Assembly (NCBI GenBank): GCA_046290225.1
Contig: JBKAGE010000037.1
Span: 32,001-96,000, forward strand
Reading direction: 5' to 3'
From: Bradymonadia bacterium
Lineage (GTDB): Bacteria; Myxococcota_A; Bradymonadia; UBA7976; UBA1532
DNA: 64,000 nt
Every line of letters begins with the position of its first letter. The first letter of the stretch is position 1. Below are positions 2,633 through 47,394 of this stretch, in pieces. A model generated the notes under the pieces. The model was given only the letters and a program-made list of their open reading frames with translations. It ran no database searches and was not told the origin of the DNA. The position numbers were made by a program, and so were the translations under genes.

Positions 2633-3499
2633 TTACTCCGCCGCTGCGTCAGCAGCTTCCTGCTCTTTGATCAAGCTCTCGTAGAGCGCATCCGTCAGCA
2701 CTGCGGTCCCATGACGCTGGGAGCCGTTGCCGTGGATGAAGAACTGCCCCAGGCGCTGCTCGCCATAGGGCCCCGCCTTCAACGTGTACTCGCCAGCGGG
2801 CACATCTTTGAACTCCACCACGCCGTCTACGTCGGTGACCGCCTCGACTTCGCCCAGGCTCAGCTCGAGGCCAGAGGCTGCCTGACCGTAGGCGGTGACG
2901 ATGGTCAGCCGCAGATCTCCAGGGGTACGCGCCTCGAGATCGCCCTTCGAGCTGAGGGTCATCTCGTACGCGGCGCTGTCTTCATAGGCAGCAGGCGTGG
3001 CCAGGACCACCACCATGTACTGTCCGGGCTCGTAGATGTCGTACTGAGCCACGCTCGAATCCCACCGCTTGATCAAATCCCACTGTTCGAAGGGGGAGTT
3101 TGCAGGGGCTTTTTCATCATAGCGGAACAACAACGTCGAGCTTTGGTAGGCGCGGGGGCGGCCAAAGGCGATGTTGGCCGCATCCCACAGCAGCTCTTCC
3201 CACCCCCAGCTCAGCTCTGCCACCAACGTCTGAGCCGACTCAACCTCGAAGGTGTAGGCGACATACTCTTCTTCGAAGAAGTTGCCCTCTCGCGTCGAGC
3301 CATCAAGCTCAACCTCAGAGGGCTTGAGGACGCGCTTGAAGTTGAGGCCGTCGGCCTTGCCTCCAGGCTCGGTGAGCACCGGACGCTCACCACTCTCGGC
3401 AGCCTCTTCAGCAGGCGCCTGCACCTCGTCGTTCATCTGCTCGCCACAGGCGACGAGGGCGGTGGAAGCGAGCAGAGCAAGGCAGAGTCGGTACAACAT
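2633..3499 (-). CDS. Lipoprotein with a GKADG motif and a C-terminal carboxypeptidase-regulatory-like Ig domain
   Basis: Lipobox LVAC after MLYRLCLALL; PGGKADG; TDVDGVVEFKDVPAGEYTLKA. Confidence 0.7.
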   Translation of the reverse strand: MLYRLCLALLASTALVACGEQMNDEVQAPAEEAAESGERPVLTEPGGKADGLNFKRVLKPSEVELDGSTREGNFFEEEYVAYTFEVESAQTLVAELSWGWEELLWDAANIAFGRPRAYQSSTLLFRYDEKAPANSPFEQWDLIKRWDSSVAQYDIYEPGQYMVVVLATPAAYEDSAAYEMTLSSKGDLEARTPGDLRLTIVTAYGQAASGLELSLGEVEAVTDVDGVVEFKDVPAGEYTLKAGPYGEQRLGQFFIHGNGSQRHGTAVLTDALYESLIKEQEAADAAAE

Positions 3500-44892: not shown

Positions 44893-45249
44893 ATGCGCAT
44901 CCTCGTCGCTGGCGCTGTCGGTTGGACTGATCGCGAAGTCATTCATCGTGAGCTGAGTTGTTGCCCTGAGGCCACCCACATCATCACGGGTGATGCTCCG
45001 GGGGCTGACGCCCTCGCCGAAGAGGTGGGGCAAGGCCTCGGCTTCAGCGTGCAGCGGATGCACAAAAACAAGAAGGATTATGAGCGGTATGGCCGCGGCG
45101 CATGGAAAGGGCTCAATGAGCGCATGCTGGCTCAAGGGCCTGATCGAGTGCTCATTTTCCACCCGGCCATCGAGAAGAGCCGCGGCAGCAAGCACATGGG
45201 CAAGATCGCAGAAGCAGCGGGGGTAGAGGTGCAGGTGTTCAGCGGCTGA
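44893..45249 (+). CDS. SLOG-superfamily protein (YspA/DUF2493-like)
   Basis: MRILVAG, IITGDAPGADALA, YGRGA...NERML and SRGSKHM pattern. Confidence 0.75.
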   Translation: MRILVAGAVGWTDREVIHRELSCCPEATHIITGDAPGADALAEEVGQGLGFSVQRMHKNKKDYERYGRGAWKGLNERMLAQGPDRVLIFHPAIEKSRGSKHMGKIAEAAGVEVQVFSG

Positions 45250-45265
45250 TCACCTGCACCTCTAC
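45223..45265. terminator. Perfect 15-bp hairpin at the convergence of the SLOG gene and the tRNA array
   Basis: GTAGAGGTGCAGGTG (45223-45237) pairs with CACCTGCACCTCTAC (45251-45265); no U-tract. Confidence 0.55.
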
Positions 45266-45269
45266 GTCG

Positions 45270-45353
45270 TACCGGAGGTCGGAGTCGAACCGACAAGGCC
45301 ATCACAGCCAACCTGGTTTGAGCAGGCCGCGTTTACCATTTCGCCACTCCGGC
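45270..45353 (-). tRNA. tRNA-Leu(CAA), long variable arm
   Basis: GCCGGAG...GCCTG-CT-CAA-AC-CAGGT...GTCGG-TTCGACT-CCGAC-CTCCGGT-A; no encoded CCA. Confidence 0.9.
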
Positions 45354-45471
45354 AAAAGACACCTCGCCTCTCTGAGAGAGACGAGGCGCCCCGCCCCTGA
45401 TCGTGCACGCCATGGATGAGGCTCGAACTGACACAGCCAGATCGTGCTCTGCACTCGCCACGGCGCATATG

Positions 45472-45558
45472 CGGAAGAGGAGGGAGTCGAACCCCCAAGG
45501 CTTTTCACAGCTCGACCGGGTTCAAACCGGCTGCCGTCACCTGTCGGCTTGCTCTTCC
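45472..45558 (-). tRNA. tRNA-Ser(TGA), atypical D-arm
   Basis: GGAAGAG...GCCGG-TT-TGA-AC-CCGGT...GGGGG-TTCGACT-CCCTC-CTCTTCC-G. Confidence 0.88.
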
Positions 45559-45585
45559 AGTTGGGCTACGGTGCTCCGGCTTTTG

Positions 45586-45752
45586 GCTCCGGTGCTCCGG
45601 CCTCATCGCCCGCCATCAGGGCGGCGATCTGGCGCCCAGATGCGGCGCTCCGATCCTCGACGTAGCCTCTGGCTACGCCTGCGGTCGGAACACCACATCT
45701 GAACACCACCTCACCACCCTGCTGACGAGCGCTGCGACCTCCGCACCTCCGC
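45586..45752 (-). repeat. Long-hairpin repeat, copy A
   Basis: Minus strand: GCGGAGGTGCGGAGG...CAGATGTGGTG...CGCAGGCGTAGCCAGAGGCTACGTCGAG...GCCGGAGCACCGGAGC. Confidence 0.75.
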
Positions 45753-45832
45753 GTGCCCGGCCTGATGTTGGCTCCAGTTTTGTGTTGCTGGAGCCCACGT
45801 TAATCTGGGCCCGTGGACCCTTTGGCTTGTCG

Positions 45833-45917
45833 TGGATGGGGAGGGAATCGAACCCCCGGGGTGCGTACGCACGGCGGGACTACAAGCCGCCCCGGCCCCC
45901 TACCGGTCTACCCATCC
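45833..45917 (-). tRNA. tRNA-Tyr(GTA), degenerate (C31-C39 mismatch, G37); possibly a pseudo-tRNA
   Basis: GGATGGG...GCGGC-TT-GTA-GT-CCCGC-C-GTGCGTACGCAC...GGTTCGATTCC...CCCATCC-A. Confidence 0.7.
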
Positions 45918-46016
45918 AAAAATGTTCGCCCACAGGGGCTCGGCAGCTCGTCGATGGGTGAGCACCGCGCATGTGCACTCGATCACCAACCAGACGCTGA
46001 GCCCCTGGGCAAAATG

Positions 46017-46101
46017 TGGACAGGGAGGGAGTCGAACCCACGGGGTGCGTACGCACAGCGGATTTACAGTCCGCTCCGGCCCCCCACCGGACTACCTGTC
46101 C
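46017..46101 (-). tRNA. tRNA-Tyr(GTA), atypical D-arm
   Basis: GGACAGG...GCGGA-CT-GTA-AA-TCCGC-T-GTGCGTACGCAC...GGGTTCGACTCCC...CCTGTCC-A. Confidence 0.85.
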
Positions 46102-46153
46102 AAAAGGCGCTCATTCACAGGGGTCGAATGACCCCACTCGAACCCAAAGCACA

Positions 46154-46326
46154 TATGTACTTGCCCCGCGGAGGCTCTGGGGCTCGGTGGCTGGCCGGTG
46201 AGTGAGTGTGCAGTCGTGGTGGCAAAAGCGCAGGCGTGGCCGGAGGCCCCGTCGAGCATTTTGACGCCGCGAAAGTACGCTCAATCGCCGGCCAGACGCC
46301 GGGCCCCAGAGCCGGAGCGCCGGAGC
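46154..46326 (+). repeat. Long-hairpin repeat, copy B
   Basis: TATGTACTTGCCCCGCGGAGG...AAAGCGCAGGCG...CGTCGAGCATTT...GCCGGAGCGCCGGAG; folds by eye into a ~140-nt hairpin with many G-T pairs on the plus strand. Confidence 0.78.
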
Positions 46327-46334
46327 AAAAAGTG

Positions 46335-46422
46335 CGGAGGCGGAGGGATTCGAACCCCCACGACCCTTGCGGGCCCTACCAAGGTAGCAACCTGGCCTCT
46401 TCACCAATTTGAGTACGCCTCC
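46335..46422 (-). tRNA. tRNA-Ser(GCT)
   Basis: GGAGGCG...CCAGG-TT-GCT-AC-CTTGG...GGGGG-TTCGAAT-CCCTC-CGCCTCC-G. Confidence 0.9.
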
Positions 46423-46449
46423 ACACAAGGCTGAGCTGTCACGCATCAG

Positions 46450-46534
46450 TGCCGCGAGCCGGATTCGAACCGGCACGACCAAAGGCGGTCCCCGGGCTCT
46501 CAACCCGGTGTGTCTTCCGTTCCACCACCACGGC
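46450..46534 (-). tRNA. tRNA-Leu(GAG)
   Basis: GCCGTGG...CCGGG-TT-GAG-AG-CCCGG...GCCGG-TTCGAAT-CCGGC-TCGCGGC-A. Confidence 0.9.
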
Positions 46535-46543
46535 AAAAATCAG

Positions 46544-46630
46544 CGGAAGAGGAGGGAGTCGAACCCCCAAGGCCCTTTCGAGCTCACCCGTATTCGAAAC
46601 GGGCGCCATCACCCATTGGCTTGCTCTTCC
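46544..46630 (-). tRNA. tRNA-Ser(CGA), atypical D-arm
   Basis: GGAAGAG...CCCGT-TT-CGA-AT-ACGGG...GGGGG-TTCGACT-CCCTC-CTCTTCC-G. Confidence 0.88.
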
Positions 46631-46663
46631 GTATGGCTCCAGAGCTTCAGCCATGGAGCACTG

Positions 46664-46748
46664 TGGACAAGGAGAGAGTCGAACTCCCGAGGTGCGTACG
46701 CACGACGCGTTTACAGCGCGCTCCGGTCCCCTACCGGCCTACCTGTCC
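46664..46748 (-). tRNA. tRNA-Tyr(GTA), atypical D-arm
   Basis: GGACAGG...GCGCG-CT-GTA-AA-CGCGT-C-GTGCGTACGCAC...GGGAG-TTCGACT-CTCTC-CTTGTCC-A. Confidence 0.85.
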
Positions 46749-46756
46749 TCAAAATG

Positions 46757-46845
46757 CGGAAGCGGCGGGAGTCGAACCCGCAGTGCCTTTCACGGCACAC
46801 CTGTTTTCCGGACAGGCGCGGCGAACCGATATCCGCCTCGCTTCC
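46757..46845 (-). tRNA. tRNA-Ser(GGA), atypical (A8, C33)
   Basis: GGAAGCG...CCTGT-CC-GGA-AA-ACAGG...GCGGG-TTCGACT-CCCGC-CGCTTCC-G. Confidence 0.85.
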
Positions 46846-46983
46846 AAACATCACACACATGTATCCCACCAGCATGCCGACGCAATACAACCATCTCATC
46901 AACACGCAACATGAAGACGCGATACACACGTGTATCAAACGGCACGCACCTACCATCGCCGCCAGAGATCAGAAGTCAGGAAG

Positions 46984-47067
46984 TGCCCGGGGTGAGATTC
47001 GAACTCACACGTCCTCACGGACACCGGCTTCTGAGGCCGGCGCGTCTACCAGTTCCGCCACCCGGGC
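46984..47067 (-). tRNA. tRNA-Leu(CAG)
   Basis: GCCCGGGTGGCGGAACTGGTAGACGCG-CCGGC-CT-CAG-AA-GCCGG...GTGAG-TTCGAAT-CTCAC-CCCGGGC-A. Confidence 0.93.
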
Positions 47068-47174
47068 ATATGGATCCCCAGCGACGATGGCAGGCACGGC
47101 ACATCGTGAGCACACACCCACAATGCTTTTATTTTCTAAGGCTTATGTGCCCTCACGAGCATCAACCGAGGCAC

Positions 47175-47209
47175 AAAAAAAGCCCCTCGGCAGATGCCTG
47201 AGGGGCTTT
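47175..47209 (-). terminator. Intrinsic terminator (attenuator) between the leader peptide and the tRNA array
   Basis: Minus strand AAAGCCCCTC-AGGCATCTGCC-GAGGGGC-TTTTTTT: GC-rich stem followed by 7 U. Confidence 0.9.
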
Positions 47210-47229
47210 CGTGCGAAGACCGGCAGGCC

Positions 47230-47337
47230 TCAGCTCGAACTCCCCTCGAGGGCACTCAGAAGCAACGACGCGCAATAAGACAGGCGCAAGTCGAGGCTTG
47301 AGAGGCGAGAGTTGGAGGTGTTCGAGATGAAGTGCAT
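47230..47337 (-). CDS. Putative attenuator leader peptide MHFISNTSNSRLSSLDLRLSYCASLLLSALEGSSS (35 aa; 11 Ser, 8 Leu, 1 Tyr)
   Basis: AAGGGA Shine-Dalgarno (47346-47351) 8 nt before the ATG; the stop lies ~20 nt before the terminator; too short for the ORF track. Confidence 0.82.
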   Translation of the reverse strand: MHFISNTSNSRLSSLDLRLSYCASLLLSALEGSSS

Positions 47338-47365
47338 GAGAACTATCCCTTGTTGAGTGACTCGA

Positions 47366-47394
47366 AAGGTAGCGGCATAGTCTGACTGTGTCAA
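47366..47394 (-). promoter_or_regulatory. Sigma70-type promoter of the leader-tRNA transcript
   Basis: Minus strand TTGACA (47394-47389), 17-nt spacer, TACCTT (47371-47366); AT-rich upstream segment. Confidence 0.82.

Follow-up and report, generated by a model that had tools for sequence, protein, structure and literature searches.

Ten supernumerary Leu, Ser and Tyr tRNA genes behind a codon-matched leader and a predicted attenuator in a Bradymonadia bacterium

We analysed 64,000 nucleotides (nt) of contig JBKAGE010000037.1 from the genome of a Bradymonadia bacterium (assembly GCA_046290225.1; this whole stretch is called the window below), which contain an array of 10 tRNA genes on the minus strand, at 45269-47067. 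According to ARAGORN, each gene is 85-90 nt long and has a long variable arm. In transcription order, the array specifies tRNA-Leu(CAG) (46983..47067), tRNA-Ser(GGA) (46756..46845), tRNA-Tyr(GTA) (46663..46748), tRNA-Ser(CGA) (46543..46630), tRNA-Leu(GAG) (46449..46534), tRNA-Ser(GCT) (46334..46422), a second tRNA-Tyr(GTA) (46016..46101), a third, degenerate tRNA-Tyr(GTA) (45832..45917), tRNA-Ser(TGA) (45471..45558) and tRNA-Leu(CAA) (45269..45353), which is the composition and order given by an earlier interpretation of the letters alone (the sequence-only reading). Seven of the 10 genes pass the Rfam tRNA cut-off, and all 10 match the tRNA or tRNA-Sec models in a permissive run. The other three are tRNA-Ser(GGA), which has an unusual C at position 33, and the first tRNA-Tyr, both supported by ARAGORN and the permissive Rfam run, and the third tRNA-Tyr, assigned by alignment to the other Tyr genes.

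ARAGORN calls this third Tyr gene Thr-TGT. We rejected that call: at 83% identity, the gene can be aligned with the adjacent Tyr genes position by position, the GTA anticodon being in register and the 31-39 pair of the anticodon stem broken, so that its earlier description as a degenerate Tyr gene holds. No class I tRNA was found above threshold within the array, where a relaxed run added only sub-threshold, overlapping calls; the array is thus made of long-variable-arm tRNAs only, as had been proposed. The cloverleaf and the expected discriminator base are kept in nine of the 10, and the U-runs noted earlier are visible 5′ of several genes. None of the 10 encodes CCA, also as stated before, but we rejected this as a special feature of the array, since only 11 of the 53 other tRNA genes outside the leader-gated blocks described below encode it.

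The genome (8.58 Mb; 96 ARAGORN tRNA calls) carries five Leu, four Ser (all four isoacceptors) and one Tyr tRNA gene outside the array. A housekeeping role was therefore rejected, and the whole-genome check proposed with the sequence-only reading identifies the array genes as extras. They are 57-80% identical to their nearest housekeeping counterparts. Rfam tRNA matches number 89 in this genome and 20-57 in 27 genomes of the same family, the completeness of which varies; within the family, the supernumerary tRNA genes are patchily distributed. The tmRNA tag and the protein matches of this genome are suggestive of a myxobacterium-like species.

Upstream of the array lies a compact candidate control region, also on the minus strand. 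A sigma70-like promoter (47366..47394) combines a perfect -35 hexamer (47394-47389), a 17-nt spacer and a weak -10 box (47371-47366; three of six positions). A Shine-Dalgarno-like purine run (47346..47351) is found 8 nt 5′ of the ATG of a 35-codon open reading frame (ORF) at 47230..47337, the leader, which contains 11 Ser, eight Leu and one Tyr codons. These amount to 20 of 34 codons, where 5.7 are expected (p=3.7e-8); none of 5000 nucleotide shuffles of the leader reached 20, and the other frames give seven and 10. The leader uses all the Leu and Ser codon boxes that the array reads, and leaves unused the Leu codons CTA and TTA, the tRNAs for which are absent from the array.

The leader is followed by a hairpin resembling an intrinsic terminator (47209-47179) with a U tract (together 47174..47209), placed 20 nt 3′ of the leader stop, with 111 nt between it and the first tRNA gene. 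Its folding energy, -24.3 kcal/mol (z -4.99), was equalled by none of 200 shuffles. A purine-rich segment in the last leader codons (47240..47247) can pair with the 5′ arm of this terminator and is the predicted antiterminator: the corresponding fold (47190-47260) has -35.8 kcal/mol (z -3.18; one of 200 shuffles as good), and seven of 2000 random genomic 33-mers pair as well as this segment does. In a fold model, the terminator 5′ arm is 80% sequestered with a ribosome placed on codons 1-26 and 0% with a ribosome at the last codon and stop; in an untranslated leader, the antiterminator fold forms before the terminator 3′ arm exists.

The spare tRNA genes of this genome are sorted by amino acid into six blocks (1-10 genes each, on five contigs), of which the array is one. 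Besides the Leu/Ser/Tyr block in the window, there are a Val/Arg/Lys/Ile block (nine genes, running up to the end of contig C20; cognate codons in its leader, 20/34), a Gln/Glu/Asp/Phe block (seven genes on C42; 17/31), a Thr/Gly/Ala block (seven genes on C79; 24/58), a Cys/Met/Pro block arranged around a nucleoside-hydrolase-like gene, also on C42 (Met sub-threshold; 19/36 with His counted in) and a Trp block on C77 (2/25). The Val/Arg/Lys/Ile block may extend onto C24, which starts with two Arg genes. His was put into the Cys/Met/Pro codon set from the leader alone; with Cys and Pro only, the count is 10/29 (p=3e-5). Together, the six blocks cover nearly the whole code, and no leader-gated Asn gene was found in the genome. 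Boxes like the -35 box in the window also occur 5′ of the other block leaders.

The 6 × 6 matrix of leader codons against blocks is diagonal, the true assignment ranking first of 720. Shuffles that reach the observed count number 0, 0, 0, 2, 0 and 590 per 5000, with the blocks in the order given above. When 48 tRNA loci were treated under one rule, the 42 outside the blocks gave no matched leader at p<0.001 (best 0.0012). The distance from leader stop to hairpin is 20-28 nt in all six, and in the fold model, the terminator 5′ arm is sequestered at 0.6-0.9 with the ribosome on the sensing codons and mostly free with the ribosome near the stop, less cleanly so in three leaders. Furthermore, among 22 leader-terminator elements, hand-chosen from earlier results of this analysis, pairing between leader ends and their own terminator arms is better than in any of 100000 permutations; within subsets, permutations did as well in 72 of 40320 cases (eight elements of this genome) and in 40 of 40320 (eight AT-rich elements).

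We also considered what might have partitioned the blocks. Class I backups of different amino acids are 0.61 identical within blocks and 0.57 between blocks (Thr/Gly up to 0.78); this excess is suggestive and too small for a shared tRNA scaffold to explain the partition. Nor do the six blocks follow synthetase class, biosynthetic family or the first letter of the codon.

Other genes of this genome lie behind similar leaders. Two strict genome-wide leader scans gave 16 matches each, including five of the six tRNA-block leaders; several of the other matches are probably due to chance. As a positive control, trpE of this genome has a leader with four Trp codons and the same geometry. A divergent EF-Tu paralog (C57:44210-43014, minus strand; L143), 56% identical to the main EF-Tu, is preceded by a leader with 10 Leu, seven Ser and one Tyr in 38 codons; the DNA similarity of this leader to that in the window is not significant (score 29; shuffle maximum 30). 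A gene for a DRB0094-family RNA ligase (C34:30995-29904, minus strand; L379) has a leader with 19 amino-acid types and a terminator. A loosened scan returned 497 matches, mostly spurious, and was dropped; it had pointed to an HNH endonuclease gene on C36 (L380:2032-1517, minus strand) with a 51-codon ORF of 19 amino-acid types and a weak hairpin terminator with a poor U tract.

The EF-Tu paralog belongs to a clade that comprises 15 of the best 30 matches from 300 genomes of the phylum (support 100/100, midpoint root); a search with a fragment of the paralog returned mostly ordinary EF-Tu. Two of the 15 lie inside mixed tRNA arrays and 13 stand alone. By a fixed rule, a short upstream ORF was found at 11 of these 13 (one wrong pick, kept), and a clear U-tract terminator is present at only about half of the stand-alone paralogs. 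In the pooled upstream ORFs, Leu and Ser account for 83 of 327 codons, against 58.5 in shuffles (0/1000 reach that count). The clade also differs from canonical EF-Tu at fixed positions, including Glu to Gln at residue 260 and Arg to Gly at residue 334 (paralog numbering), which we take to be in the amino-acid pocket and at a pulvomycin-resistance site, respectively.

On these grounds, the 10 spare Leu/Ser/Tyr tRNA genes are very probably gated by a ribosome-stalling attenuator, consisting of the codon-matched leader and the terminator behind it. The leader would be translated, and a ribosome reaching its last codons would cover the purine-rich segment, upon which the terminator would form. 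Should the housekeeping Leu, Ser or Tyr tRNAs become limiting, most likely by damage or depletion, a ribosome stalled at codons 5-26, where 14 of the 20 sensing codons lie, would leave the purine-rich segment free to capture the terminator 5′ arm before the 3′ arm is made. The resulting read-through would supply the divergent backup tRNAs. Taken together, the six blocks would act as a self-diagnosis panel of translation. Myxobacteria are described as exchanging tRNase toxins, and one of these, SitA3, as cutting tRNA-Ala (PMC5562445).

Several results weigh against this proposal. At equilibrium, the full-length leader in the window folds the terminator at every ribosome position (0.7-1.0); with the terminator preferred in the finished RNA irrespective of ribosome position, the switch has to be kinetic, the choice falling during transcription. 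Three Ser codons lie 3′ of the antiterminator segment, and a stall there would favour termination. Consensus scans listed neither the promoter, with its weak -10 box, nor the terminator, the long loop of which escapes a short-loop scan. Amongst the other blocks, the Trp leader is not significant against shuffles and the Thr/Gly/Ala leader modestly so (p=0.011), the Cys/Met/Pro block seems to have decayed (its U tract is short, its Met gene scores below threshold and a His gene is missing), and for four of the 22 elements, the pairing with the cognate arm ranked 15th or worse. Moreover, no close homologue of the locus was found that could show conservation: BLAST of 40 relatives gave single-tRNA matches only; 400 genomes of the phylum gave 20 matches, two of them in mixed arrays; a Ser-gene pattern matched nothing in species genomes; and a Tyr-arm pattern gave two chance matches without tRNAs in metagenomes. 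Finally, the trigger, most likely tRNA damage and not starvation, is a matter of argument (see below).

Related arrays occur in other genomes and in viral contigs; all but one of our collection scans covered samples of loci. Mixed tRNA arrays with a leader of 19-20 amino-acid types and a hairpin were found in Myxococcus eversor (L038), M. llanfairpwll. (L041/L135) and genomes G176 and G406, and arrays in G206 and G178 have hairpins and ORFs of 17 amino-acid types. Some mixed arrays hold an Rsr/TROVE, rtcB-like or EF-Tu paralog gene. The Leu tRNAs of the mixed arrays L038, L133 and L134 are without the long variable arm, unlike the housekeeping Leu tRNAs. A leader search in Myxococcus gave, among the matches listed, one locus, already in the set. 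The six blocks probably go back to such a mixed L-array of tRNA genes with a single all-amino-acid leader, an arrangement still found in related genomes.

As separate observations on these arrays, the Val/Arg/Lys/Ile block includes a tRNA-Arg with a GCG anticodon (C20, L023:480-555) that is absent from the housekeeping set, and the mixed arrays L255 and L256 also begin with this anticodon. In this genome (L021:1652-2569) and in two Myxococcus species (L038 and L041, 3001-3867 in both), a gene resembling inosine-uridine nucleoside hydrolases is found within tRNA arrays or directly ahead of them; out of 80 loci of its homologues, two, from two Myxococcus species, are at tRNA arrays.

The survey for class II-only arrays proposed with the sequence-only reading was productive: Leu/Ser/Tyr-only arrays with matching leaders recur in one Lachnospiraceae genome and four distinct viral contigs. 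A scan for Ser-then-Tyr adjacency, which selects for Ser and Tyr by design, covered at least 240 loci with at least 66 clusters holding both, and yielded a Lachnospiraceae metagenome-assembled genome (L554; 11 genes) and the viral contigs L409 (identical to L455) and L422. A Leu-then-Ser scan, blind to Tyr (80 of 120 loci analysed; at least 38 clusters), gave the viral contigs L646 and L636, the latter splitting the code into three leader-matched blocks, one of which is Leu/Ser/Tyr. A relationship among the four viral cases is possible. In L554, terminator and tRNA genes are separated by a short ORF (~1950-2200) that, by eye, looks like a helix-turn-helix regulator, with transposase-like ORFs around; in L636, the Leu/Ser/Tyr block ends with a tRNA with a CTA (amber-reading) anticodon (3377-3449).

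Why Leu, Ser and Tyr go together is a question of its own. The sequence-only reading took this set to indicate a threat or defect specific to the long variable arm, and part of that claim stands: the grouping is unlikely to be due to chance (0.002 for these three forming one block in this partition, post hoc), and it recurs in unrelated DNA. As a stand-alone answer to long-arm trouble, the array does not qualify, because it is one of six blocks covering nearly the whole code, and class I tRNAs are backed up too. It is possible, and we propose it tentatively, that an attacker recognising the long variable arm accounts for the grouping, the attenuator being the alarm, which would be compatible with attenuation as set out above. 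MenT3 reportedly prefers tRNA-Ser. Between this genome, L636 and L310, the make-up of the other blocks changes, but Leu, Ser and Tyr are not separated; and in the viral modules L409, L422, L636 and L646, the long arm has been lost from the backup Leu tRNAs (74-77 nt) and, in one case, from Tyr (70 nt) too, and these are nonetheless grouped with Ser. Septu cuts tRNA-Tyr in its variable loop (PMC13096335).

By contrast, the backups in the window keep their long arms, and the search for a neighbouring attacker or repair gene was negative: no Schlafen-like, MenT/AbiEii or rtcB gene was found at the array, and genome-wide there is one Schlafen/AlbA domain, on another contig, and no AbiEii match. 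Two prokaryotic Schlafens are described as not specific for class II (PMC13056530, PMC13462974). Among the matches listed for 12 small viral Leu+Ser clusters, the commonest third type is Met (nine, near-copies), with Tyr found once, and a Ser-only scan gave no Leu/Ser/Tyr-only block among the 61 clusters listed, its two matched leaders having other groupings (L310). Long-arm tRNAs could also be grouped through processing in common or a shared ancestry. With the same reserve, we put forward the wider conjecture that separate attenuators release the six tRNA sets, the EF-Tu paralog and the RNA ligase, and that the class II block, the one that recurs unaltered here, in gut Lachnospiraceae and in phages and that shares its control in this genome with a Leu/Ser-sensing EF-Tu paralog, marks a widespread bacterial weapon against, or a failure of, long-arm tRNAs as a class, in the manner of SLFN11.

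A different view of the trigger is that the attenuator senses amino-acid starvation or a general slowdown of translation, by antibiotics or EF-Tu inhibition, with Leu and Ser codons merely being good reporters of stalling. Classical leaders do sense uncharged tRNA, blocked initiation would also open the switch, given that the untranslated leader folds the antiterminator first, and the EF-Tu paralog leaders of the phylum are Leu/Ser-biased without tRNA genes downstream. In Anabaena, translation inhibitors induce the array (PMC8421152). We nevertheless consider this view rather unlikely. tRNA damage is favoured over starvation as the trigger because extra tRNA supplies no amino acid and thus would not cure its lack, and because the RNA ligase shares the design, which points to broken RNA. 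Six tuned leaders would not be needed for a general signal either, for which one all-amino-acid leader serves in the related arrays.

It is improbable that the blocks have fallen silent and are decaying as what is left of an acquired element. The degenerate third Tyr gene, non-standard bases in several tRNAs, repeats in the spacers, the state of the Cys/Met/Pro block and the patchy occurrence in the family would be in keeping with decay. Against this, the leader ORFs are uninterrupted and in frame, they fit their own terminators, and the six sites are unlinked and surrounded by ordinary genes; nearly all tRNAs in the window are intact in cloverleaf and discriminator base. No tyrosine integrase (PF00589) was detected on the array contig or the other block contigs, the matches being on other contigs only (serine recombinases were not searched), and the eight proteins flanking the array have only generic PHROG matches, in line with the earlier statement that integrase and phage genes are missing here. 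That the leader ORF arose by chance in promoter DNA rich in pyrimidines, with a constitutive array behind it, is hardly credible: C/T-rich DNA readily gives Leu and Ser codons (shuffle mean 9.4/34), but the observed count was never reached, and five other blocks are matched with quite different amino acids.

Attenuators that work through leader peptides are known from trpL, hisL, leuL and pheL, from the multivalent thrL and ilvGMEDA, and from pheST. The predicted attenuator of the array resembles those of amino-acid operons in its short ORF rich in cognate codons, a terminator soon after the stop and an antiterminator overlapping the leader end; it differs in that it controls tRNA genes (elsewhere in the genome, an EF-Tu paralog and an RNA ligase) and not enzymes of synthesis or synthetases, and in that six leaders divide the code. 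The proposed mechanism is classical attenuation; the target, tRNA genes, is not: no paper describing tRNA genes under the control of leader peptides turned up in the open literature (subscription journals and supplements were outside the search). T-box riboswitches likewise choose between terminator and antiterminator according to the state of a tRNA. The logic is alike, but no Rfam T-box match was found, and sensing here would go via the translating ribosome. Streptomyces EF-Tu3 (tuf3), a divergent extra EF-Tu, is reportedly linked to translation stress in the WblC response; the paralog described above, which we liken to it by description only, belongs to a clade within its own phylum, found in tRNA arrays or behind short ORFs.

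Amongst tRNA genes, the nearest parallel is with L-arrays, which are supernumerary and patchily distributed, as here, are induced under translation stress and are linked to HNH and RNA-repair genes; the Anabaena trn operon is repressed by TrcR acting on promoter repeats (PMC8421152, PMC10272220). L-arrays are single and mixed, with up to 43 genes, whereas the genes here are split by amino acid, with their own codon-matched leaders. No HNH, RtcB or other RNA-repair gene adjoins the array or the other blocks; the HNH and RNA ligase genes are found elsewhere, behind similar leaders. In the main text of the two Anabaena papers, a leader or attenuation is not mentioned, and neither are leaders in one Mycobacterium tRNA-array paper. 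Phages offer another parallel: tRNA-Tyr of T6 and T5 counters Septu and retron-Eco7, a class II tRNA being cut in the variable loop (PMC13096335). There too, extra, divergent genes restore a depleted tRNA; the dose rises through gene amplification or resistance, as opposed to a chromosomal set with a predicted feedback switch.

Attenuation is the textbook means of matching enzyme synthesis to the supply of amino acids. If our proposal is correct, cells would directly sense that particular tRNAs have been lost and would restock only these; this would account for the purpose of “cryptic” supernumerary tRNA arrays and for the way in which they are switched on outside cyanobacteria. From the leaders, one could read which groups of tRNAs fail jointly in nature, and the same leaders could serve as ready-made reporters in the search for toxins that target tRNAs, among them one selective for class II. 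Since the single-leader version is present in cultured Myxococcus strains, the idea lends itself to bench tests.

The spacers of the array contain two copies, in opposite orientation (46167..46327 and 45582..45759), of a dispersed repeat of ~160 nt that is not a tRNA; copies 69-81% identical occur on many contigs, one of them also at the end of C20. An inverted repeat revealed by self-match (45223..45265), directly 3′ of the last tRNA gene, overlaps the stop of a convergent SLOG-family gene and is the likely transcript end. In another part of the genome (L027:1133-2158; C34, ~374600-375660), a sigma54-like promoter is followed by three elements resembling tRNAs (107-116 nt), the anticodon arm of which carries a repeated insert, then by two Pro tRNAs and a TROVE gene; an Asn/His tRNA pair on C44 likewise has a sigma54-like promoter.

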